NCBI GenBank assembly: GCA_013112575.1
Contig: JABFGG010000005.1
Location: forward strand, 149,497-213,496
Reading direction: 5' to 3'
Length of the DNA: 64,000 nucleotides
DNA from: Chloroflexota bacterium
Lineage (GTDB): Bacteria > Chloroflexota > Anaerolineae > Anaerolineales > UBA11579
A program made the translations under genes and the position numbers. The notes under the pieces are model-generated. The model was not told the origin of the DNA, made no database searches, and worked only from the letters and a program-made list of their open reading frames with translations. Each line of letters starts with the position of its first letter. Within the stretch, counting starts at the first letter, position 1. Below are positions 4,368-14,557 of this stretch, one piece after another.

Positions 4368-4994
4368 CTATTCTTTGGCTGCTGCCCGGGCTGCCGCTTT
4401 GGCAGCCTTTTCTTCTTCTTTGGCGATGCGGATATCTTCTTCTCGCCGGTAATTGGTGGGGCGAATCTGGGCGTAATAATCTACAGACATGGAGAGTTTC
4501 TCTTTGTTGTAGATGTGCGCAGAATGGCGGTCATAGGAAGCCAGTTCGTACTGGTGATCCATCTTGATAGCATCGAAGGGGCAGTATTCTGCACAGTAAC
4601 CACAGTTCATGCAGATGTCGATGTCAATATAGAATTCGACCGGCTCAGGCACAGGACGACCGGTATCGGGGTCTTCCGTACGCACGATCCAGATACATTG
4701 CGGCGGGCAAACCTTGGCGCAAATACCACAGGAGGTACAGCGATCCTGTTGTTCACCATCAGGGCCTTCTTCATATAAGAGGAAGGGGATAAAGCGGAAC
4801 TCTTCGGGTACGGGGAGCTTCTCTTCAGGATACTGGACAGTGAAGATGCCCGAGGCGTTTTTGCTGGAACGGTGTGCAACGCCTTCAGGGGTGTAATAGC
4901 GTTTGCCGATCCACTTGAAGTCCTCCACAAAAGTGCCGATGAAGTGACCCATTGTGACCATAAGGCCGCGTAATATACCAAATCCAAAATTCAT
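4368..4994 (-). CDS. nuoI: NADH-quinone oxidoreductase subunit I (2x[4Fe-4S] ferredoxin-type)
   Basis: CTSCGICAKVCP and CMNCGYCAEYCP motifs. NuoI-like N-terminus. Lys/Ala/Glu-rich C-terminal tail. Confidence 0.9.
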   Translation of the reverse strand: MNFGFGILRGLMVTMGHFIGTFVEDFKWIGKRYYTPEGVAHRSSKNASGIFTVQYPEEKLPVPEEFRFIPFLLYEEGPDGEQQDRCTSCGICAKVCPPQCIWIVRTEDPDTGRPVPEPVEFYIDIDICMNCGYCAEYCPFDAIKMDHQYELASYDRHSAHIYNKEKLSMSVDYYAQIRPTNYRREEDIRIAKEEEKAAKAAARAAAKE

Positions 4995-5012
4995 AATATA
5001 GCTCCGTCTTGC

Positions 5013-6779
5013 CTAGCGATCCACTTCGCCGAGGATGATATCAACAGAACCCAACACAACCACAACATCAGCGACTTTAGAGCCAATGCACATCTTTTCC
5101 AGGGCAGTCAGGTTGATAAAGGATGGGGCGCGTACGTGATAACGCCAGGGGTTGGCCTTACCGTTGGACACAACATAAAAGCCAATCTCGCCCTTGGGGC
5201 CTTCTACACGACCAAAAGCTTCACCAGCCGGTACACGCACCTGGTAGGGGTTCTTACCGGTGAGGAAATCGCCATCGGGGATACGCTCCACAGCCTGCTG
5301 CACAATGCGAATGCTCTGACGGATCTCGTCCAGTCGAATCAGGTAACGGTCATAGACATCACCGTGGTAACGAACAGCTACGTCGAAATCGAATTGCTCG
5401 TAGATGCTGTAAGGATCAGCCCGGCGCACATCGTAGGGCACACCGGAAGCACGCAGCATGGGGCCAGCCATAGAGTACTCAATGGCCTCATCGGGGGACA
5501 AAACGCCGATGCCTTCGCAGCGAGTACGCACGATTTCATTGTTGGTCAGGTAACGATCAAGCTCATCTACCTTGCGAGGCAGACGCTCGGTGACCAGTTC
5601 GCCAATGCGCTCAAGGACACCCTCGGGGAAATCACGCGCCACACCGCCAAAGCGGAAGTAGTTATTCATCATGCGCGAGCCCGTGGTGGCTTCAAAGATA
5701 TCCAGCAACAACTCGCGTTCTTCAATAGCATACAGTGAGGGGGTGAAGAAAGCGCCCAGGTCATTGAGCAAGAAGCCAATCGCCCAGAGATGGGAACTGA
5801 TACGGGTCAGTTCTGCCATAATGACGCGGATGTATTCTGCACGTTCGGTGGGTACGCCTTTGGCACCCATCAGTTTTTCTACAGCCAGAGCATAACCGAA
5901 GTTATTGGAGAGGGATGTAATGTAATCAAGCCGGTCGGTGAAGGGCATGTTGTGCAGGAAAGTGTTGCGTTCGCCAATCTTCTCATGATTGCGGTGCAGG
6001 TAGCCCATCACCGGTTTGAGTGCCACTATCGTCTCACCATCCATCAACACGGCCATGCGGAACACACCGTGGGTGGAGGGGTGCTGCGGGCCTAAGTTGA
6101 CGATGACCTGCTCTGTATCCAGATCTTCGATCTCATCATATTCCGCATTGCTGCGACGCAGTGAGTCGTAGAGAGCGTCCTCAATGGCCGGGCTCCAGGA
6201 CTCGGGGTCAAAGCCTTGCGGGTACTGGTTGTTCTTACCGACCGGGTTATGGTCTTCGATGCGATAGACCTGCCCGCCGGGCCAGCGGTTGGCAAAGGGC
6301 TTAACATCTTCTTCAAAGTAAGGCTCTTTCCAATCTTTGCGCATGGGGAAGCCTTCAAAGCCCTCCCACATAAGGATGCGGCGCATGTCGGGGTGATCTG
6401 TAAAATCAATGCCATACAGGTCAAAGGCTTCGCGCTCCTGGAATTCAGCGCCAGGGTACAGTGGAGTCAGTGAGGGAACTGCTGGGTTGTCGCGCGGCGT
6501 TTGCACGGCCAACACGAGGGCCGAACCACCAGTGGATTTATAGAGGTGATAGACCACCTCAAAATAGCTTTCTTCATCCTCTTTCTGCGCCAGGTAATCA
6601 ACCGCGGTAACCGAGGAGAGGAAGTCGTAGCCCAAATCATCGCGTAGTACCTGCGCAACTTCAGTGAGCTTATCGAGTTGGACGATGTAGCCTTCATAAC
6701 CTTTGCGCTCGTCGTGAGTGACAACGCCGGGGAAACGAGCTTCGAGAGTACCTTCTTGTGCGGGGGCCATTTCTGTCAT
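5013..6779 (-). CDS. nuoCD: fused NADH-quinone oxidoreductase subunit C/D
   Basis: 588 aa. The NuoC half carries YPGAEFQEREAFDLYGI. The NuoD half carries NLGPQHPSTHGVFR and a C-terminus DIILGEVDR. No hydrogenase CxxC nickel ligands. Confidence 0.9.
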   Translation of the reverse strand: MTEMAPAQEGTLEARFPGVVTHDERKGYEGYIVQLDKLTEVAQVLRDDLGYDFLSSVTAVDYLAQKEDEESYFEVVYHLYKSTGGSALVLAVQTPRDNPAVPSLTPLYPGAEFQEREAFDLYGIDFTDHPDMRRILMWEGFEGFPMRKDWKEPYFEEDVKPFANRWPGGQVYRIEDHNPVGKNNQYPQGFDPESWSPAIEDALYDSLRRSNAEYDEIEDLDTEQVIVNLGPQHPSTHGVFRMAVLMDGETIVALKPVMGYLHRNHEKIGERNTFLHNMPFTDRLDYITSLSNNFGYALAVEKLMGAKGVPTERAEYIRVIMAELTRISSHLWAIGFLLNDLGAFFTPSLYAIEERELLLDIFEATTGSRMMNNYFRFGGVARDFPEGVLERIGELVTERLPRKVDELDRYLTNNEIVRTRCEGIGVLSPDEAIEYSMAGPMLRASGVPYDVRRADPYSIYEQFDFDVAVRYHGDVYDRYLIRLDEIRQSIRIVQQAVERIPDGDFLTGKNPYQVRVPAGEAFGRVEGPKGEIGFYVVSNGKANPWRYHVRAPSFINLTALEKMCIGSKVADVVVVLGSVDIILGEVDR

Positions 6780-6790
6780 GATGTTTTCCT

Positions 6791-7441
6791 TTACTCCACC
6801 GCGGGGATGACTGTGGTGAGCGGCCCGGATTTGACGCCATCTTTGATGGTTTCATAGTCACGGGGGTCGATAATGTCAGGGCCGAGGATGGGCACGGGGA
6901 TCGGCTCAATGGGCTTGGTGCGGTCACGGAAATTGGTGAAGTGTTTCTCCGTGTCGATCTTTTCCTGGATCTTCATCAAACCGTGCAGCAAAGCCTGCGG
7001 GGTGGGTGGGCAGCCAGGCACGTAAACATCCACCGGGATGTATTTATCCACACCCGAGACAACGTTGTAGCCTTCTTTGAAAGGCCCACCGCCCGATGCG
7101 CAAGCGCCCATCGCCATAACGTACTTGGGGTCAGGCATCTGGTTGTACAGGCGCACGATCTGCGGCAACATCTTCTTGGTGACAGTACCAGAGACGATCA
7201 TCAGGTCCGATTGGCGCGGGCTAGGGCGCAGGACCTCCATGCCGAAGCGAGCCAGGTCATAACGTCCGGCAGCGGCAGAGATCATCTCAATGGCGCAGCA
7301 GGCCAGGCCAAACATCATGGGCCAGACGGAGTAGCGCCGGCCAGCATTGAAGATCTTATCAATGGTGGTGATGGCGACGTTGGCACGCGCTTCCGGGGAA
7401 ATGTCGTAGCCTTCAGTGTTCAAATTGGGGGTTTCAGTCAT
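6791..7441 (-). CDS. nuoB: NADH-quinone oxidoreductase subunit B (N2 cluster subunit)
   Basis: [16 protein letters not shown] and VPGCPP motifs. Start placed at ATG 7441 (MTETPNL), which forms an ATGA overlap with the stop of the upstream ORF. Confidence 0.9.
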
Positions 7442-7659
7442 AATGGGTTTCGCTCCTCGTACCATTCCTGGTAAATGGCCATCAGGATCTCGTCTGTGGC
7501 CAAAGCGGGGTCATCTTGGAAATTGGGGAGTTGAATAATCCAATCGAATAAATTAGTAAGCGATAGTTCTTCCAGATCAACATCGGGATGCTGGGCTTGT
7601 AAGGCCAACACGATCTCGTATCCGGCATCCCAAAAGAGTGGTTGAGTATTTTCGTTCAA
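7438..7659 (-). CDS. iscX: IscX/YfhJ-like small acidic Fe-S assembly accessory protein
   Basis: 73 aa. [21 protein letters not shown]...[32 protein letters not shown] aligns along its length with E. coli IscX as I remember it ([21 protein letters not shown]...[32 protein letters not shown]). TTG start. Confidence 0.6.
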
Positions 7660-7668
7660 TTTGCCACT

Positions 7669-7697
7669 ATTATAGATGGTGGCTTGAAGAGTGTCAA
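7669..7697 (-). promoter_or_regulatory. consensus sigma70-type promoter for the iscX-like/nuoB-CD-I operon
   Basis: Minus strand reads TTGACA (7697-7692), a 17-nt spacer, then TATAAT (7674-7669). Only 9 nt separate the -10 box from the TTG start at 7659. Confidence 0.6.
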
Positions 7698-7708
7698 ATG
7701 TTGGGCAG

Positions 7709-7717
7709 TGATATAAT
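7709..7717 (+). promoter_or_regulatory. candidate extended -10 promoter (TGaTATAAT) for the divergent regulator gene
   Basis: TGATATAAT at 7709-7717. No good -35 box. Sits back-to-back with the minus-strand promoter. Confidence 0.35.
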
Positions 7718-7758
7718 AAAGAAAATATAGATTTGTTTTATTTTAGTCGCTGGTCTGA

Positions 7759-7824
7759 TAGTCCTTAGTCCAGAGGCCACTCCATAGTCACTGGTAAGAC
7801 TGAGGACTTTGGACTACCGGACTA
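7759..7824 (+). repeat. array of five AGTCC/GGACT pentamers forming a long-range inverted repeat directly upstream of the regulator start codon
   Basis: AGTCC at 7760 and 7767. GGACT at 7804, 7811 and 7819. TAGTCCtTAGTCC can pair with GGACTAccGGACTA. Confidence 0.8.
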
Positions 7825-7828
7825 GAAA

Positions 7829-8437
7829 ATGCAAAGCACTCGCCAGAAAATCCTCACCCACCTTGACAGCCACCACTCCGCTTCGGCAGTGGAGATCAGC
7901 CGCGCTTTAGGTATGACCAGGGCCAATGTGCGACACCATTTGAATGTGCTGCAGGAAACGGGGTTAGTGGAATTAGCAGGTCAATTACCCAATGAGGGAC
8001 GCGGCCGCCCTACCCTGCTTTACATGGCTACACACCAAGCACAAACTAATAATCTCGGGAGACTTGCTTCGGTTTTGATCAAAGAGTTCGTGGTCAAACA
8101 AAAACGGAATGTTGGTAAGCGCCTGCAACGCATGGCGAAGATATTGGGTGATGGTATAGATAAAAGTGGCTCGATCACTCAACGGCTATACGCAAGCACC
8201 CGTCATCTCAACAGCATGCAGTACAACTCCCATTGGGAAGCGCATGCCGATGGGCCGCGCGTGATCTTCGGGCAATGCCCCTATGCTGCTATTATTGAAG
8301 AGCACCCGGAATTATGTTCAATGGATGCTTTGTTTTTAAAGGATATGCTAGGGATGGAGGTGGAACAGCTTGGCAAGATAGAGTACAAGCCGGATGGCAT
8401 GCCGCATTGCATCTTCGCAGTGCAAAACACCCCTTAG
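7829..8437 (+). CDS. winged-helix (ArsR/DeoR-like) transcriptional regulator with C-terminal CX12CX30C motif, SufR-like
   Basis: N-terminal HTH RQKILTHLDSHHSASAVEISRALGMTRANVRHHLNVLQETGLVE. C-terminal FGQC-PYAAIIEEHPEL-C-(30 aa)-C. Confidence 0.7.
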   Translation: MQSTRQKILTHLDSHHSASAVEISRALGMTRANVRHHLNVLQETGLVELAGQLPNEGRGRPTLLYMATHQAQTNNLGRLASVLIKEFVVKQKRNVGKRLQRMAKILGDGIDKSGSITQRLYASTRHLNSMQYNSHWEAHADGPRVIFGQCPYAAIIEEHPELCSMDALFLKDMLGMEVEQLGKIEYKPDGMPHCIFAVQNTP

Positions 8438-8520
8438 TCAGTGCACATTTCATCAAGCACAATCGGGGTTGGAAATAAAAAGTAATGATAATATGAACAG
8501 GTTCAACCAGCAGATCTGAT

Positions 8521-10575
8521 ATGAAACACAGATTCTTAATTGCCCTTTTCATCGCCCTCCTGTTTGGCAGCGCCCAGGCCAGTTTCGCCGCGCCTGTTTC
8601 ACAGGAAGCCAGCGAGATCATCTCATTAATTAATGAGTATCGTGCCGAAAACGACCTGGCTCCCCTCAACATCAATGCCCAACTAACCAGCGCCGCACAA
8701 ACCCAGGCCAGTTACCAGGCCTCCATTAATACACTGACGCACAATGGCGCAGGTGGCACATCGGCCACGGACAGGGCAGTCGCGGCAGGCTATGGCGCCA
8801 GCGGTACTCCCTTCATTAGCGAGATCATTTATGCCGGGGGCAACGCTACCCCTGAGAGAGCGCTTAGTTGGTGGAAAAGCTCCAACATCCACAACCCCAT
8901 CATGTTGTCGCTGGTGCGTCACGAGATCGGGGCAGCCGTAGCCACTTCAAATGGGCAAACTTATTACACCGTAGTATTCGGCAATATTCCCGGCCAAACG
9001 ACAGCACTACCACTGGATGCAGACCCGGGCAGTTTGCAAACCGCAGTTCCCACCGACGACGCAGTGATCGCAGCCACCCCCGCTCCTGATGGTTCTATCC
9101 TGCATCTGGTGCAAGCTGGTGAGACGCTGGAAGACATTGCGGCTGCTTATGGCATTTCTGTAGCAGAGCTACAGGCACTGAACAACCTGCAAGAGGGGGA
9201 TGACTTGCCGGTGGCTCTGGTCATTCAGGAGCCTTTGCCGCTAGACCAGATCACTCCTCAAGTTGCCACCGCAACCCTTGTACCGCCAAGCGCAACACCC
9301 TCCCCTGTCACAGTCGACATCCCCACAGCAACGCCCGCTGGCGGGGCTGGTGGGGTAGACGAAGGTGGAAGCGGCTCAACCTCAGGGGAAACGGAGGCAT
9401 CACCACCCAATCAAGGGGTAATTTTCACGACCATATCTTTATTGATCGCCCTACTTGTGTCCCTGGTGTTGAATGTATGGTTATTCCGTTCACGGGAGCA
9501 ATTGCTAAATGAGCTAGACCCCGAACGCCAATCTCGCCGTCGCGGTGTCATCACGCGCGACGCCTTTGCCGAGTTGAGTTACGACGAGCAACGTGAGCGC
9601 TTAGAGGACCTTGCCAGGGTCGCCCTCGAAGACTACCCTCTTGAGGTGACAAACATCACCCCACTGCAATACCAGTTAAACGCTTCCTTCCAGGTTGAGG
9701 GCAAACCCACAGATATTGAAGACGGAGAATCACAGCGTTTCTTTTTACGCATCAGTGCACCGGATTACCAGTCTCAGGACAATATCCGCTCTGAGATGGT
9801 CTATCTGAAATACATCCGGGATAACTCCGACCTCAAGGTGCCCAATCCGCTGGCTACCCACATAGGCGAGTTGATGACCACCGCCGAATCCTTACAAGTT
9901 CCCGAGCCACGCAATGTCATTATGCTGCGCTGGCAGGAAGGCGGCGCTTTGCCCGAAGATGAATTAGGGTCCACCGAACTGGAAAAAGTGGGCGCCTTCA
10001 TGGCCAAATTGCACAACCTGGCAGAAGCATTTGAAGAGCCGGATTATTTCGTGCGCAAACGCTGGGATGTGGACGGCTTGATGGGGGAGAACCTGGACGT
10101 GTCCGTTGACCGGGCCCATGCCAACCTCACAGCAGAACAACTCGTAACCATCAACGCCGCTCTCAAACGCGTGGAGCAGGCTGCTCATGTCCTTGGGGAA
10201 AGTCGCGATACCTTTGGACTGATCCACGCCGACCTCCACCAGAAGAATTACATCTTCGAAAATGGTGTGGTGCGGGCCATTGATTTCGACACTCTGGGTT
10301 GGGGTTATTACGTCTATGACATTGCCGTAACCTTCTCACGTTTGCTGCACCGCAAAGACCTGGGCACGCTGCGCGAAGCTTTCTTACGAGGCTACCGCGG
10401 CGAACGCTCCCTGCCGCCCATCCACGAACAACAGATCGTGCCCCTCGTGGCTGCCCGTCTGGTGACAACCACCTTGTGGTTGGCGGGGCATGCAGAAGAT
10501 ACCATCTTCAAAGACGTGGCCCCCAAGCAGATTGACCATCAGGTCCAGCATTTACGGGCCTTCTTGCAGCGCTAG
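8521..10575 (+). CDS. membrane protein: signal peptide, CAP/SCP domain, LysM, TM helix, cytoplasmic APH-fold (protein-kinase-like) phosphotransferase domain; catalytic motifs intact
   Basis: 684 aa. WWKSSNIHNPIM (CAP), ILHLVQAGETLEDIAAAYGISVAELQALNNL (LysM), TM GVIFTTISLLIALLVSLVLNVWLF, then HADLHQKN and IDFD kinase motifs. Confidence 0.8.
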   Translation: MKHRFLIALFIALLFGSAQASFAAPVSQEASEIISLINEYRAENDLAPLNINAQLTSAAQTQASYQASINTLTHNGAGGTSATDRAVAAGYGASGTPFISEIIYAGGNATPERALSWWKSSNIHNPIMLSLVRHEIGAAVATSNGQTYYTVVFGNIPGQTTALPLDADPGSLQTAVPTDDAVIAATPAPDGSILHLVQAGETLEDIAAAYGISVAELQALNNLQEGDDLPVALVIQEPLPLDQITPQVATATLVPPSATPSPVTVDIPTATPAGGAGGVDEGGSGSTSGETEASPPNQGVIFTTISLLIALLVSLVLNVWLFRSREQLLNELDPERQSRRRGVITRDAFAELSYDEQRERLEDLARVALEDYPLEVTNITPLQYQLNASFQVEGKPTDIEDGESQRFFLRISAPDYQSQDNIRSEMVYLKYIRDNSDLKVPNPLATHIGELMTTAESLQVPEPRNVIMLRWQEGGALPEDELGSTELEKVGAFMAKLHNLAEAFEEPDYFVRKRWDVDGLMGENLDVSVDRAHANLTAEQLVTINAALKRVEQAAHVLGESRDTFGLIHADLHQKNYIFENGVVRAIDFDTLGWGYYVYDIAVTFSRLLHRKDLGTLREAFLRGYRGERSLPPIHEQQIVPLVAARLVTTTLWLAGHAEDTIFKDVAPKQIDHQVQHLRAFLQR

Positions 10576-10732
10576 GGTTCCATCAAAACAGATTAGACTA
10601 GTTGTAATGCTGAAAGACGGAACCCCATGCTCCGTCTTCAAATCCCCCACTAATCTTCATTAAACTGCAAACATGGTAAGATTCCGGCGCGATGATCCAA
10701 CCGCGCTGGACCCACTAATCCCCTGAATTTCG

Positions 10733-12892
10733 ATGCGTAAACTACTCATCAGCCTGGTTTTTGCTGCCTTTGTGCTGCCTATCTGGCAGGTCTCTGCTTC
10801 ACCCTCTCCCGAGCCTGGCAGCGCCCCCCTGTTAACTCCCAGCCAGATCATTAGTGGCATTAACAGCTACCGCGCCGCCAATGGCCTGCCATCCTACCAG
10901 AGCAACAGCACTCTGATGCAATTGGCGCAGGGCCAGGCGGACTACCAGGCTTCAATTGAAACTGTGACGCACACCGGGCCGGGAGGCACGCGTCCCATCG
11001 ACCGGGCCTATTCCATCGGGTATGGGAATGGCAACACCGTTTTCGTTTCAGAGATCATTTACGGAGGCTATACCGCTACGGTTGATATCGCCATCACCTG
11101 GTGGAAAGGTTCCAGCATCCATAACAGCACTATGCTGGCTTCCACCTACCAGGAGATCGGGGCGGGTGTGGCCTCATCGGGGGATCGCATGTTCTTCACT
11201 GCCGTCACCGGCTATGTAGTGGGCGCTCCAGCACCTGAAAATGCAGGCGTCCCCATCGTTGCAGGCGATGATGAAACCAGTACCGAGAGCGAAGCTCCTT
11301 CCGTACCTTCCATCATCATTATCCCTGTCACAAAATCGGAGCCACGCGAGGATGGCTCCATCATCCATACCGTGCGCACGGGTCAAGCCCTCTGGAATAT
11401 TGCCGCAGTTTATGACGTCCCGCTGGAAGAATTGTTAGAGATCAATAACCTGCCCCAAAACGCCATCATCTTTTCCGGCGATGAAATCATCGTTCAGGAA
11501 GCCACAGAGCCGGTCGTAGAAGTTGAGCCAACTACAGATTCCCAGATTGATACTCCTGAACCAACCGAAGCCGTCGCGCCAACCATAGCTCCAACGGAGG
11601 CCGCGGCCATTGTTGAAGAAGCAACTGCAGACGAAGCCGAAGTTAACACTAGTGCCTCGGCCGTCGCTGCCTTACCCCCGGCAGAACAACCTGGCATCAC
11701 GGGGTTCTTCCAAGGCTCCACAGCCCGTTGGATCATGGTGATTGCTTTTGTAGGACTGTTAGGCGTGTTGGGGACCAGCCTGGTGATGCAACAACGTACA
11801 GTCGAAACCGCGACAGTAACCGGCAACCTCGACCCACTGACCACACCGTTAAACGTTGCGCTCTCTTCAGAGTCACAGGAAGAAAAACAATTCGAAGAAT
11901 TACCCAGGAAAGAACAGTTTGAGCACCTGCAACGTCTAGGGGAAGTGGCTTTGATGACCTACGATCTGAAGATCGAAGATATCAAGCCGCATAATCATTG
12001 GCTCAACGCCAGCTTCAAATTACTCAGTGCCTCCGAAGATGGGGCAGATAACCCAGACTATTTATTGCGGATTCATCATCCCAAACTCCACACAGCTGCC
12101 AGAGTACGTTCCGAGATGCAATGGTTGGCACACTTGAGAGAGCATGCAGACCTCCAAGCTCCTGAACCAATTAAGAACATCGAAGACAAATGGGTGACCA
12201 TGATGGATGCGCCCGGCGTACCCGAGAAGCGGGCTTGCACGATACTCACGTGGCCGTCAGGAAAACAACTCACTGCCAAGCAAGTCACTCAAAAGAAAAT
12301 GGGGCAGGTAGGCGCGTGGCTAGCCCGATTACATGAAGCAGGTCAGGAATTCGACCCACCGAAAGGATTCACGCGTCCCAAGTGGGATTGGGCCGGATTG
12401 CAAGGCAAAGCTTTTAATGTAAAGCGAGATGCAGCACGCGCTGATCTCAGTGATGAACAGCTTGAAATCCTGGATGCTGCAAAAGAGCAAATCAAAGACA
12501 CCATGGGACAACTGGAAAAAAGGAAAAACGCTCTCGGCTTGATCCATGGAAATTTAGGTGTTGACAATCTGGTATTTGACGGCGATGAGGCCAAAGCCAC
12601 AGACTTTGCTGCCAGTGGCTGGGGCTATTATGTTTATGATCTGGCCGTCACTCTACACAGCCTGGCAAATCGTGATAACCTGCCCAAACTCGAAACCGCA
12701 TTGTTGAAAGGCTATCGTAATGTTCGCCCTTTGCCGGACGAAGAAGCTACCAATATAAAAACCTTAATGGCCGGGCGCAGCATGTCACAGGTTTATTTGA
12801 TGACAGCCCTTATCGACCAACCAGCCTTCCATAAACAGGCCGAAGAACGTATCCAGGAACAATTCGACTATTTAGCCACATACCTAATTTAG
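10733..12892 (+). CDS. paralog of the preceding gene with the same architecture; catalytic Asp replaced (predicted pseudokinase)
   Basis: 719 aa. WWKGSSIHNSTM (CAP), IIHTVRTGQALWNIAAVYDVPLEELLEINNL (LysM), TM WIMVIAFVGLLGVLGTSLVM, then HGNLGVDN and TDFA in place of HxD...N and IDFD. Confidence 0.8.
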   Translation: MRKLLISLVFAAFVLPIWQVSASPSPEPGSAPLLTPSQIISGINSYRAANGLPSYQSNSTLMQLAQGQADYQASIETVTHTGPGGTRPIDRAYSIGYGNGNTVFVSEIIYGGYTATVDIAITWWKGSSIHNSTMLASTYQEIGAGVASSGDRMFFTAVTGYVVGAPAPENAGVPIVAGDDETSTESEAPSVPSIIIIPVTKSEPREDGSIIHTVRTGQALWNIAAVYDVPLEELLEINNLPQNAIIFSGDEIIVQEATEPVVEVEPTTDSQIDTPEPTEAVAPTIAPTEAAAIVEEATADEAEVNTSASAVAALPPAEQPGITGFFQGSTARWIMVIAFVGLLGVLGTSLVMQQRTVETATVTGNLDPLTTPLNVALSSESQEEKQFEELPRKEQFEHLQRLGEVALMTYDLKIEDIKPHNHWLNASFKLLSASEDGADNPDYLLRIHHPKLHTAARVRSEMQWLAHLREHADLQAPEPIKNIEDKWVTMMDAPGVPEKRACTILTWPSGKQLTAKQVTQKKMGQVGAWLARLHEAGQEFDPPKGFTRPKWDWAGLQGKAFNVKRDAARADLSDEQLEILDAAKEQIKDTMGQLEKRKNALGLIHGNLGVDNLVFDGDEAKATDFAASGWGYYVYDLAVTLHSLANRDNLPKLETALLKGYRNVRPLPDEEATNIKTLMAGRSMSQVYLMTALIDQPAFHKQAEERIQEQFDYLATYLI

Positions 12893-12918
12893 AGACGCAA
12901 TAGCCAAGAGGAGAAGGC

Positions 12919-13638
12919 GTGCAACTTACAAACATCGAACCCACGCGTCGCGGCGAGTTCTGGGCGGGAGCTAAAGCTACCATTCCATTAATTGTGGGGG
13001 CCATACCATTCGGAATTATCTTTGGCGCGCTGGCTGTGCGCAGTGGCTTTTCGCCTGCCGGGGCCGCGGGTATGTCGTTTTTCGTGTTTGCCGGTTCATC
13101 CCAGTTTATCGCCACCAGCCTGGCCGCAGGCGGAGCCACCACCCTTTTCATCGTGCTGACCACCTTTGTGGTCAATCTGCGCCATGCACTATATTCGGCT
13201 ACCTTGGGGCCCTACGTCAAACACCTGCCCCAGCGGTGGCTGCTGCCGCTTGGCTTCTGGCTTACCGATGAATCTTTTGTTGTGGCCGTGCAACGTTACC
13301 GTGCTGAAGACAGCTCACCATACAAACATTGGTTCTTTTTGGGTTCAGCCGTGTTCATGTATGCCAACTGGAACCTATGTACCTGGATCGGCATCTTCAC
13401 CGGGCAGGCCATACCACCGGAATGGGGCCTGGAGTTTGCCATGGTAGTGACCTTCATCGGCATGCTGGTCCCGCTGATCATTGGCCGCCCCACCCTGGTT
13501 GCTGTATTTGTCGCAGGGGTCACAGCAGTACTGGCCAACAATCTGCCCAATCGCCTGGGACTGCTGGTAGCTGCTATGTTAGGTATCTTGGCCGGGGTCC
13601 TGGCAGAACGTTTCTTTGGGGAGCCGGACAATGAATGA
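12919..13638 (+). CDS. azlC: AzlC family branched-chain amino acid exporter subunit
   Basis: 239-aa polytopic protein with AzlC-like sequence, followed by azlD. GTG start with an AGGAGAAGG ribosome-binding site (RBS). Confidence 0.8.
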
Positions 13639-13948
13639 ATGGCTGACCATTTTCGGTATGATGCTGGTGACCTTTGGGGTGCGTTATCCGGTGCTGGCGC
13701 TTGTCGGTAAGATACCTTTACCTGACCCCATCTTTCGTTCGCTCAAATACGTGCCACCTGCTGTTTTGACCGCCATCATCGTGCCCGAAATCCTGTTGAC
13801 TGATGGGCGTATTGACCTGGCGTTCAATAATGCTCCCCTTTTTGCGGGTATCCTCGCAGGTCTGGTGGCCTGGCGCAGTAAGAATCTGCTACTGACGATA
13901 GTTTTGGGCATGTTGGCCTTGTGGGGCTGGACGTGGCTGATTTCGTAA
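13631..13948 (+). CDS. azlD: AzlD family branched-chain amino acid transport protein
   Basis: Small hydrophobic protein overlapping the azlC stop. ATG 13631 ([11 protein letters not shown]) with GGGGAG upstream. Confidence 0.75.
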
Positions 13949-13999
13949 GCTAAACTTTTAATTAACCAAATAACGTTCCTATAGGGAAGGAAAGAATTC

Positions 14000-14557
14000 A
14001 TGAACACCATACGAAAAATCTTTTGGATCTTAAATAAGTTCTTTATGGTGCCTGCCTTTCGCCTGGGGCTTGGTCCCCTTCTCGGCACGCCCATTAGCGG
14101 CTATGTGATGATCATCAAGAACACGGGCCACAAGACAGGAAAACTGCGCTGGACGCCTGTGAACTACGCTATCAAGGATGGCTGCGTATACTGCCTGGCA
14201 GGCTTTGGTAAGGTCGCCCATTGGTATAAGAACATCAAAGCCAAACCATCAGTTGAATTGTTGCTGCCATCAGGCGCAGTAGCCGCCGAGGCCAGGGAAT
14301 TACTAGCGTCACCAGAACGCTTGACAATCATGCGCCAGATACTCAAGAACTCTGGCTTTGCAGCTTTTCTCTTCGGGATCAATCCCTTTACGGTTTCTGA
14401 CAGTGTCCTGGAAGAAAAAACCCAGGATTACATTGTGCTGGGCCTCGAACCAAAAGGTATTGGTTCTGGAGCAGCCGACCCGGGCGGCTGGTTATGGCTC
14501 TTACCAACTTTTGCAACCATCCTGCTGATCTGGTGGTTATTAGTTTCTTTCCGGTGA
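14000..14557 (+). CDS. nitroreductase/deazaflavin-dependent oxidoreductase family (DUF385-like) protein with C-terminal hydrophobic anchor
   Basis: GYVMIIKNTGHKTGKLRWTPVNYAIKDGCVYCLAGFGKVAHWYKNIKAKPSVEL matches the DUF385/F420-binding split-barrel pattern. Confidence 0.6.
   Translation: MNTIRKIFWILNKFFMVPAFRLGLGPLLGTPISGYVMIIKNTGHKTGKLRWTPVNYAIKDGCVYCLAGFGKVAHWYKNIKAKPSVELLLPSGAVAAEARELLASPERLTIMRQILKNSGFAAFLFGINPFTVSDSVLEEKTQDYIVLGLEPKGIGSGAADPGGWLWLLPTFATILLIWWLLVSFR

Follow-up and report, generated by a model that had tools for sequence, protein, structure and literature searches.

Two tandem genes of a Chloroflexota bacterium raise the question of whether a bacterium can sense its cell wall through a membrane protein that carries LysM outside the cell and a kinase-like fold inside it. 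The genes, called copy 1 and copy 2 here, lie in a stretch of 64,000 nucleotides (contig JABFGG010000005.1 of assembly GCA_013112575.1, positions 149,497 to 213,496), the whole of which is referred to as the window. The architecture itself is genuine and very rare, its named records all come from Chloroflexota, and its function is assigned by no curated family or paper found. The preferred explanation is a hetero-oligomeric cell-wall receptor with co-receptor logic, which is held tentatively and at somewhat less than an even chance. The features of the two genes are as follows (aa, amino acids).

8521..10575, + strand: copy 1 gene, 684 aa, predicted type-I membrane protein with a complete set of catalytic motifs
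8521..8589, + strand: copy 1 signal peptide, residues 1-23, MKHRFLIALFIALLFGSAQASFA; Ala-x-Ala sites, without a lipobox Cys
8623..8976, + strand: copy 1 CAP/SCP/PR-1 domain, residues 35-152 (PF00188, E 1.9e-14, 54.9 bits against a cut-off of 21.1)
9103..9210, + strand: copy 1 LysM repeat, residues 195-230 (PF01476, E 6.6e-9, 36.0 bits against a cut-off of 20.9)
9211..9414, + strand: copy 1 low-complexity spacer rich in Pro, Thr, Ala, Ser, Gly and Glu, read directly from the sequence
9415..9486, + strand: copy 1 transmembrane helix, about residues 299-322, Kyte-Doolittle peak 2.64, followed by RSREQ...RQSRRRG
9496..10572, + strand: copy 1 predicted cytoplasmic APH/ELK-fold kinase domain, residues 326-684
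10225..10248, + strand: copy 1 catalytic loop HADLHQKN, in which Asp571 is GAC at 10231-10233
10282..10290, + strand: copy 1 DFD metal-binding motif, Asp588-Phe-Asp590
10733..12892, + strand: copy 2 gene, 719-aa paralog with the layout of copy 1, catalytic Asp changed to Asn
10733..10798, + strand: copy 2 signal peptide, residues 1-22, no Cys
10859..11200, + strand: copy 2 CAP domain, residues 43-156 (PF00188, E 2.3e-13, 51.4 bits)
11366..11494, + strand: copy 2 LysM repeat, residues 212-254 (PF01476, E 2e-7, 31.3 bits)
11726..11794, + strand: copy 2 transmembrane helix, about residues 332-354, Kyte-Doolittle peak 2.46
11801..12889, + strand: copy 2 predicted cytoplasmic APH-fold domain (Pfam APH at residues 437-662, E 4.6e-21, 76.1 bits)
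12545..12568, + strand: copy 2 degenerate catalytic loop HGNLGVDN, in which Asn607 is AAT at 12551-12553; His and terminal Asn kept
12602..12610, + strand: copy 2 DFA motif, metal-binding Asp624 kept, Ala626 at the third position

Both proteins have the same domain order, namely a signal peptide, CAP, LysM, a spacer rich in Pro, Thr, Ala and Glu, one transmembrane helix and an APH-fold kinase domain. This five-part layout had been proposed in the original prediction from the letters alone, and it was borne out by Pfam, AlphaFold2 models and Foldseek; the positions of both open reading frames (ORFs), the signal peptides and the CAP motifs quoted there are present exactly as stated. The Pfam scan recovered CAP, LysM and APH in both proteins, all above the gathering cut-offs, with the kinase fold C-terminal to the transmembrane helix, and the APH match of copy 1 covers residues 400-630 (PF01636, E 5.4e-20, 72.6 bits against a cut-off of 23.2). 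The two copies align from end to end with 33% identity (E 2e-117), and neither half of the architecture occurs in any other ORF of the window. Copy 1 is a 100% match to a protein on a 922-kb contig recorded at NCBI as 'MAG: Chloroflexi bacterium', where copy 2 is also identical. The copy 2 protein sequence is recorded from 6 contigs (NCBI and Logan sources), so Asn607 is unlikely to be an assembly error.

A cleavable signal peptide and a single transmembrane helix in each protein support the type-I topology of the original prediction, in which CAP and LysM would lie outside the cell and the kinase domain inside it. Kyte-Doolittle analysis gave two hydrophobic segments per protein, the N-terminal signal (residues 4-27 in copy 1) and the helix (about residues 297-325 in copy 1 and 328-354 in copy 2). 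The copy 1 helix is followed by three Lys/Arg within 15 residues and preceded by none, which is a clear positive-inside bias; the bias around the copy 2 helix is weak.

The ectodomain of copy 1 was modelled by AlphaFold2 with a predicted local distance difference test score (pLDDT) of 89.6. The top Foldseek match of its CAP part was the Borrelia CAP protein BB0689 (E 8e-8, TM-score 0.83, root-mean-square deviation 1.9 Å), and further CAP-fold matches were GAPR-1, P14a and Pry1. The C-terminal unit was modelled as beta-alpha-alpha-beta (E-H-H-E) and matched the LysM structures 4UZ2 (T. thermophilus) and 4UZ3. In the CAP domain, His74, Glu101 and His124 are invariant among 62 homologs and Glu135 is the consensus residue at less than 90% conservation, their mapping onto the canonical CAP tetrad His-Glu-Glu-His being by motif position only. 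LysM is an established binding module for peptidoglycan and chitin, that is, for glycans containing N-acetylglucosamine (GlcNAc), and these ectodomains presumably bind peptidoglycan. For at least one bacterial CAP protein, DalA (RSP1200), peptidoglycan binding and a role at the divisome are known (PMC10470522; its CAP domain is stated in PMC5442454).

The cytoplasmic domain of copy 1 (residues 326-684) was modelled by AlphaFold2 from a 65-sequence alignment, with a pLDDT of 95.2 and a predicted template-modelling score (pTM) of 0.91. Its best PDB match in Foldseek is 6EF6, a microcompartment-associated aminopropanol kinase (E 2.4e-18, TM-scores 0.74/0.81, 26% identity), followed in order by the amicoumacin kinase AmiN, YihE, a type II homoserine kinase, and choline kinases together with antibiotic phosphotransferases. 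A phmmer search of the PDB also gave 6EF6, with E 1.4e-29 for copy 1 and 5.9e-20 for copy 2, and Pkinase and PASTA had no match at E<=0.1 in the Pfam scan of either protein. These findings confirm that the kinase is of non-Hanks type, as had been proposed, with an APH/ELK fold and small-molecule kinases as its closest relatives.

All NCBIfam scores of the two copies (copy 1/copy 2) were below the cut-offs: 51.3/78.9 bits against 271 for type II homoserine kinase (NF003558), 29.3/49.3 against 255.9 for homoserine kinase (TIGR00938), 44.7/31.1 against 194 for SrkA/YihE (NF008738), 22.6/15.0 against 172.7 for CotS (TIGR02906) and 36.5/26.7 against 200 for DalA (NF052539), and neither signal peptide contains a Cys. 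Homoserine kinase was the best NCBIfam match, though far under its cut-off, and none of 65 family kinase domains came near the cut-off of any NCBIfam model. The original prediction had proposed that no bacterial member of this architecture is characterised and had named a CotS-type coat kinase as a possible known function; all curated families scored below their cut-offs, and the literature searches yielded no bacterial member that has been characterised.

Several close relatives of the kinase are parts of larger proteins. In P0092, P0110, P0087 and P0148 the kinase is the N-terminal domain of a nonribosomal peptide synthetase (NRPS) and is followed by a TubC_N docking domain, after which P0092 (2788 aa) continues with condensation (C), adenylation (A), peptidyl carrier (PCP) and thioesterase (TE) domains in the order C-A-PCP-C-A-PCP-TE. 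In P0139 and P0141 it is fused to a PhyH dioxygenase. This suggests natural-product tailoring or self-resistance kinases, and such fusions among close relatives point to small-molecule substrates in the ancestral kinase family. Family ancestry favours a small molecule as the substrate here as well, with a protein substrate possible too. A comparison of fused and standalone kinase domains gave six fused-specific positions only, none of them in a recognisable substrate pocket.

The catalytic residues were compared across 243 distinct family kinase domains, of which 21 are fused and 222 were classed as standalone. Copy 1 has the beta3 Arg (the family norm, also found in 6EF6) and the alphaC Glu together with the HxDxxxxN and DFD motifs. 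Two of these positions differ in copy 2 (Asn607 and Ala626), which retains the Arg and the Glu, the loop His and terminal Asn, and the metal-binding Asp. The original prediction had read the HADLHQKN and IDFD motifs of copy 1 as intact and the catalytic Asp of copy 2 as lost, and both readings hold. Its contrast of IDFD with TDFA has to be corrected, and a reading of TDFA as lost metal binding was rejected: the metal ligand is the first Asp of the motif, which none of the 21 fused domains, including copy 2, lacks, and DFA is a frequent variant, with Ala at the third position in 18 of the 222 otherwise canonical standalone domains.

The catalytic Asp is kept by 220 of the 222 standalone-classed domains, and both Asn cases among them are the split copy-2 fragment of a related locus, L001, which is a member of the fused family. 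Asn at this position is not the family norm, whereas the original prediction had held that Asn as the norm, with activity retained, would speak against a dead copy 2. The change from Asp to Asn occurs in 4/21 fused domains plus the L001 fragment and in 0 genuine standalone domains. The terminal Asn of the Brenner motif is replaced in 12/21 fused versus 10/222 standalone domains, and half of the fused family has Ser in its place (H-x-D-L-H-x-K-S). The change to Ser was considered as a second type of dead kinase and was rejected because the active B. subtilis methylthioribose (MTR) kinase 2OLC reads LIHGDLHTGS, with Ser at that position. Judged by its motifs, D607N is the only clear catalytic lesion of copy 2. 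The cytoplasmic domain of copy 2 is predicted to be catalytically impaired, a pseudokinase through loss of the catalytic-loop Asp with the fold kept, and it probably still binds nucleotide.

The pair lies in a syntenic block in which nuoI-nuoCD-nuoB on one strand are followed on the other by ArsR, copy 1, copy 2, AzlC and AzlD. This order is found in the window and in the related loci L001, L002 and L023, and partly in L168. Two fused genes stand in tandem in the window, L001, L002 and L168. The copy-2 cytoplasmic domain takes a different form from genome to genome.

L002: intact, HGDMQTHN and IDFD
L168: a downstream 201-aa APH ORF, probably P0086 (201 aa, HGDLQTHN, IDFD)
Window: HGNLGVDN and TDFA
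L001: QGNPQAQH, more degraded
L023: absent, the protein ending a few residues past the transmembrane helix

The pairing of a kinase with a pseudokinase, which the original prediction had proposed, is not conserved in this comparison. The rates of change also differ between the copies. Identities between the window and L002 are given below with the nonsynonymous divergence (dN), which is used in relative terms only because synonymous sites are saturated between these two.

CAP: 88% in copy 1, 94% in copy 2
LysM: 85% in copy 1, 96% in copy 2
Kinase domain: 88.3% in copy 1 (dN 0.08), 56.5% in copy 2 (dN 0.30)

The kinase domain of copy 2 has diverged about 4-5 times as much as that of copy 1, and the copy-2 ectodomain is 94-96% identical. 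The divergence of this kinase domain is as fast as that of the unstructured linker (dN 0.22-0.29), and in copy 1 the linker with the transmembrane helix is the least conserved segment (62% identity to L002). Across the pairs of three genomes, the C-terminal kinase part of copy 2 is 53, 41 and 41% identical, and that of copy 1 is 91, 80 and 78% identical. Constraint on the copy-2 kinase domain seems to be much relaxed and not abolished, because the ORF is open, the fold-defining residues persist and dN is well under the saturated synonymous divergence (dS). According to the identities of neighbouring genes, L002 is closer to the window than L001 is, so the Asp/Asn state has changed at least twice in this small clade. 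The intact domain in L002, the lack of a domain in L023 and the linker-like divergence indicate that the predicted dead state of copy 2 is recent and lineage-specific and is not a conserved design.

Two observations on these loci are added here. In L001 (5862-10135), L023 (5995-7844) and L168 (375-2546), the reading frames of fused genes are interrupted, leaving two or three ORFs that overlap. Indel errors of long-read assemblies are suggested by the names of the contigs and by a stated coverage of about 3x, and real pseudogenisation is possible. In L023, a gene at 9219-11387 sits between the kinase-less copy 2 and AzlC, where the window has the copy-2 kinase domain; it encodes a 722-aa PAS histidine kinase containing three internal repeats that are almost identical and are probably PAS modules.

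Kinase-less partners are also found elsewhere in the family. A fused gene adjoins a kinase-less protein of CAP, LysM and transmembrane helix (CAP-LysM-TM) in L023, L086 and L089; this partner lies on the upstream side in L086, and L089 and L023 have it downstream. L085 also has a CAP gene downstream, which is truncated at the end of the contig. The kinase-bearing protein of L023 and L089 matches the ectodomain profile in its CAP part only, and the partner matches it through the LysM region. The fused proteins of the L085/L089 lineage (P0018, P0021) have no LysM, and the sole kinase domain of the locus reads HGNLHERN with the other motifs intact. Both proteins carry Asn at an identity to each other of only about 50%, which suggests that Asn has been kept for long, as would be typical of a nucleotide-binding non-catalytic signalling module and not of a metabolic enzyme. 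Asn in a sole kinase domain is also counter-evidence to the simple scheme of an active kinase with a dead regulatory partner that the original prediction implied. The constants of the family are an extracytoplasmic CAP (usually accompanied by LysM, either on the same polypeptide or on a partner), a transmembrane helix and a kinase-fold domain, and the catalytic machinery is optional. Together, the kinase-less partners and the decay of copy 2 point to the ectodomain, not catalysis, as the constant element.

Word-indexed homolog searches returned a handful of relatives and missed the paralog, and an exhaustive profile search was used instead. The query profile was built from the two paralogs together with two orthologs. 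Among the 1.84 billion protein cluster representatives scored with it, about 12 combine both halves of the architecture, with CAP in 12/12, APH in 12/12 and LysM in 7/12. The top 150 matches also hold about 79 standalone kinases of about 340 aa and about 64 kinase-less CAP-LysM-TM clusters of about 350 aa. When one genome per GTDB species was considered, the fusion was present in 5 of 185,579 species (L004, L005, L014, L017 and L023). A metagenome scan gave six more fused loci (L084-L089), of which L085 lies on the same contig as L003. All named fused records belong to Chloroflexota (Anaerolineae/Anaerolineales or Chloroflexia). The other 75 loci returned are standalone kinases in Chloroflexota, Actinomycetota, Latescibacterota, Gemmatimonadota, Acidobacteriota and other phyla, and a CAP-family gene adjoins the kinase in none of these 75; L036 has a weak CAP-profile match (31 bits) about 4 kb downstream of its kinase. 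The fused kinase domains form one clade in a neighbour-joining tree, which suggests that a single fusion event may lie behind all fused proteins.

Among 67 standalone kinase loci, the commonest neighbour family occurs in 6 loci only, and no metabolic or biosynthetic neighbours were found around the standalone-kinase or single-copy fused loci examined. The single-copy fused loci and the contexts of P0014, P0015, P0016, P0020 and P0022 have no conserved neighbour beyond close relatives. Most genes of the Ser clade occur singly, among neighbours that are unrelated.

In the preferred model of a hetero-oligomeric receptor, cleavage of the signal peptide would leave CAP and LysM outside the cell on a flexible stalk rich in Pro, Thr and Ala, where they would bind cell-wall glycan. 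One helix would span the membrane, and an ATP-dependent phosphotransferase domain of APH/ELK fold would lie in the cytoplasm. Copy 1, in which all catalytic residues are present, would be the enzymatic output of the receptor. Copy 2 would be the co-receptor, mainly through its strongly conserved ectodomain, and its cytoplasmic domain would be a non-catalytic partner under weak constraint, which is intact in some sister lineages and further degraded or lost in others. In this model, we infer hetero-oligomerisation, control of the kinase by ligand and the nature of the substrate. A bolder form of the model would make these proteins the first bacterial type-I LysM receptors, in which the CAP and LysM ectodomains of a kinase-bearing subunit and of an intact, dead or kinase-less co-receptor would sense glycan fragments of the wall and an ELK/APH kinase would signal inward, the logic of CERK1/NFR1, NFR5 and CEBiP having been invented here independently of plants; this form is rather unlikely.

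Several points weigh against the receptor model. The kinase relatives that are characterised or annotated by context all act on small molecules (6EF6, AmiN, homoserine kinase and the NRPS- and PhyH-fused kinases). Because the sole kinase domain of L085/L089 has Asn, phosphorylation cannot be the universal output of the family. Many members are single genes without a partner (L004, L005, L014, L017, P0014, P0016 and P0022), and no conserved neighbour gene in the fused loci examined points to a substrate or a response regulator. The kinase tree is distance-based and without bootstrap support, and with dS saturated the dN/dS of copy 2, about 0.2, is only a rough estimate.

The strongest rival is a membrane-tethered kinase for a small molecule, such as a metabolite, an antibiotic or a cell-wall precursor, whose ectodomain would only localise it to sites of wall synthesis or turnover with no signal crossing the membrane. 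It has a lowish probability. The closest solved relatives speak for it, being an (S)-1-amino-2-propanol kinase, the amicoumacin kinase and type II homoserine kinase, as do the NRPS- or PhyH-fused kinases among the top 150 relatives and the distant homoserine kinase match in NCBIfam. It also agrees with the full catalytic set in copy 1 and several other fused members, and with the Ser variant of half the fused family, which the active 2OLC shares. However, about 5 of 22 fused domains lack the catalytic Asp although their fold is conserved, which is unexpected for an enzyme that is needed, and one Asn lineage has it in the only kinase domain of the locus. The constancy of the ectodomain and the lack of metabolic or biosynthetic neighbours around the loci examined also argue against it.

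A second and improbable alternative is a non-catalytic scaffold or inside-out regulator, in which a nucleotide- or ligand-binding module would recruit cytoplasmic partners or control the activity of the extracellular CAP domain. The concentration of catalytic-loop changes in the fused family (Asp to Asn as well as replacement of the Brenner Asn) and the abundance of kinase-less CAP-LysM-TM proteins fit this explanation, and the invariant His74, Glu101 and His124 suggest a functional cleft outside the cell. A precedent exists in the CotS/BSK family, in which repeated and independent loss of catalytic residues has given pseudokinases (PMC2860764). However, copy 1 and its orthologs keep all catalytic residues under strong constraint (88% identity, dN 0.08), and the change from Asn to Ser is compatible with activity.

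The least supported reading, a conserved pair in which dead copy 2 would be an obligate allosteric partner of copy 1 as in HER3 or NFR5, is very unlikely: the tandem is kept in four related genomes, the copy-2 ORF is open despite its high divergence and copy 2 retains the beta3 Arg, alphaC Glu, loop His and Asn and metal Asp, but L002 has an intact HGD...N and IDFD in copy 2 (L168 likewise if P0086 is its ORF), L023 has no copy-2 kinase domain, and the dN of that domain is 0.30 against 0.22-0.29 for the linker.

The gene upstream of the pair is as follows.

7829..8437, + strand: ArsR/HTH_20-type regulator (Pfam HTH_20 and HTH_5), syntenic in four genomes

Its membership in the system of copy 1 and copy 2 is uncertain. 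The regulator has a C-terminal extension of about 120 aa with GQCPYAAIIE.HPELC, a two-Cys motif that the L023 ortholog shares. The extension could be a redox or metal sensor, and its link to the pair is positional only. ArsR and AzlCD were considered as parts of the system and were rejected, being syntenic only in the clade of the window and split off by insertions in L002 and L023. In L002, a gene for a 513-aa Mrr_cat/NA-iREase1 restriction-type nuclease (6228-7769, - strand) lies between ArsR and copy 1.

Further upstream, a complex-I-like cluster occupies 4368-7465 of the window on the - strand. It encodes a NuoB-like Oxidored_q6 protein, a 588-aa fused NuoC/NuoD and a two-ferredoxin NuoI-like protein, for which the Pfam assignments were taken from orthologs in related loci. 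The cluster is 72-93% identical across the four syntenic genomes, and a Mrp/ParA-type Fe-S ATPase adjoins it in L001 and L002. The 157-nt gap between copy 1 and copy 2 contains an 8-bp hairpin with a 9-nt loop (10614-10638), in which AAGACGGA (10614-10621) pairs with TCCGTCTT (10631-10638) and no T-run follows. This hairpin may have arisen by chance, or may act between the two genes as an attenuator or a site for processing. A promoter and terminator scan of 7400-14100 gave fewer matches than in shuffled sequence.

If these proteins do signal, they would represent a third way to read the cell wall from outside, beside the bacterial PASTA-Hanks kinases and the LysM receptor-like kinases (RLKs) of plants, and the receptor would be built from a kinase lineage otherwise known for phosphorylation of metabolites and antibiotics. 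It would also be a first point of access to envelope sensing in Chloroflexota of the Anaerolineae type, in which the biology of the cell envelope is little understood. The four related genomes offer a natural series of one co-receptor with an intact, an Asp-to-Asn, a further degraded and an absent kinase domain. This series is useful for the study of how pseudokinases arise and whether function persists, and if these are indeed the first bacterial LysM receptors, close relatives would show successive stages of the change from a kinase through a pseudokinase to a partner without a kinase. The impact is limited by the rarity of the family, the uncultured state of the organisms and the lack of a conserved partner gene.

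The comparison with known systems begins with the PASTA kinases (PknB, PrkC and StkP). The original prediction had likened the architecture to the logic of PASTA and plant LysM kinases; the outline is alike, but protein-kinase signalling is only an analogy, the nearest relatives being small-molecule kinases. Like the present proteins, PASTA kinases are single-pass and join an extracellular peptidoglycan-binding module to a cytoplasmic domain of the kinase superfamily. However, they combine a Hanks-type kinase with a PASTA sensor, whereas an APH/ELK fold is combined with CAP and LysM here. The order is also the opposite one: their kinase is N-terminal and is preceded by no signal peptide, whereas the present proteins begin with a signal peptide and end in the kinase.

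The plant LysM receptors (CERK1/NFR1, NFR5 and CEBiP) share the predicted type-I topology and a LysM ectodomain. They also join an active kinase with a pseudokinase (NFR5) or a kinase-less partner (CEBiP), to which L002, the window, L001 and L023 may be compared. They differ in having three LysMs, an RLK/Pelle kinase and known protein substrates, whereas one LysM with CAP and an ELK-fold kinase are found here. These plant data are background (PMC6628658, PMC11572979), and the resemblance would be convergent at most.

The kinases 6EF6, AmiN (6SUI), homoserine kinase (2PPQ) and YihE/SrkA (1ZYL) have the fold and catalytic motifs of the cytoplasmic domain, but they are soluble proteins of about 330 aa with 17-26% identity to it in Foldseek. 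The CotS/BSK proteins are likewise APH-like kinases with recurrent pseudokinases; they lack a transmembrane helix and an ectodomain and are spore-specific in Firmicutes. The CAP proteins DalA, YkwD and BB0689 share the CAP fold, but they are soluble proteins or lipoproteins without a cytoplasmic domain. HER3/ErbB3, of a eukaryotic tyrosine-kinase family, has the same change from Asp to Asn in the catalytic loop of a receptor paralog that partners an active relative. Its Asn state is conserved, whereas that of copy 2 is not conserved among the orthologs. The two proteins belong to neither the PASTA nor the plant LysM receptor families, and only by their single domains can they be assigned to superfamilies, namely CAP, LysM and APH.

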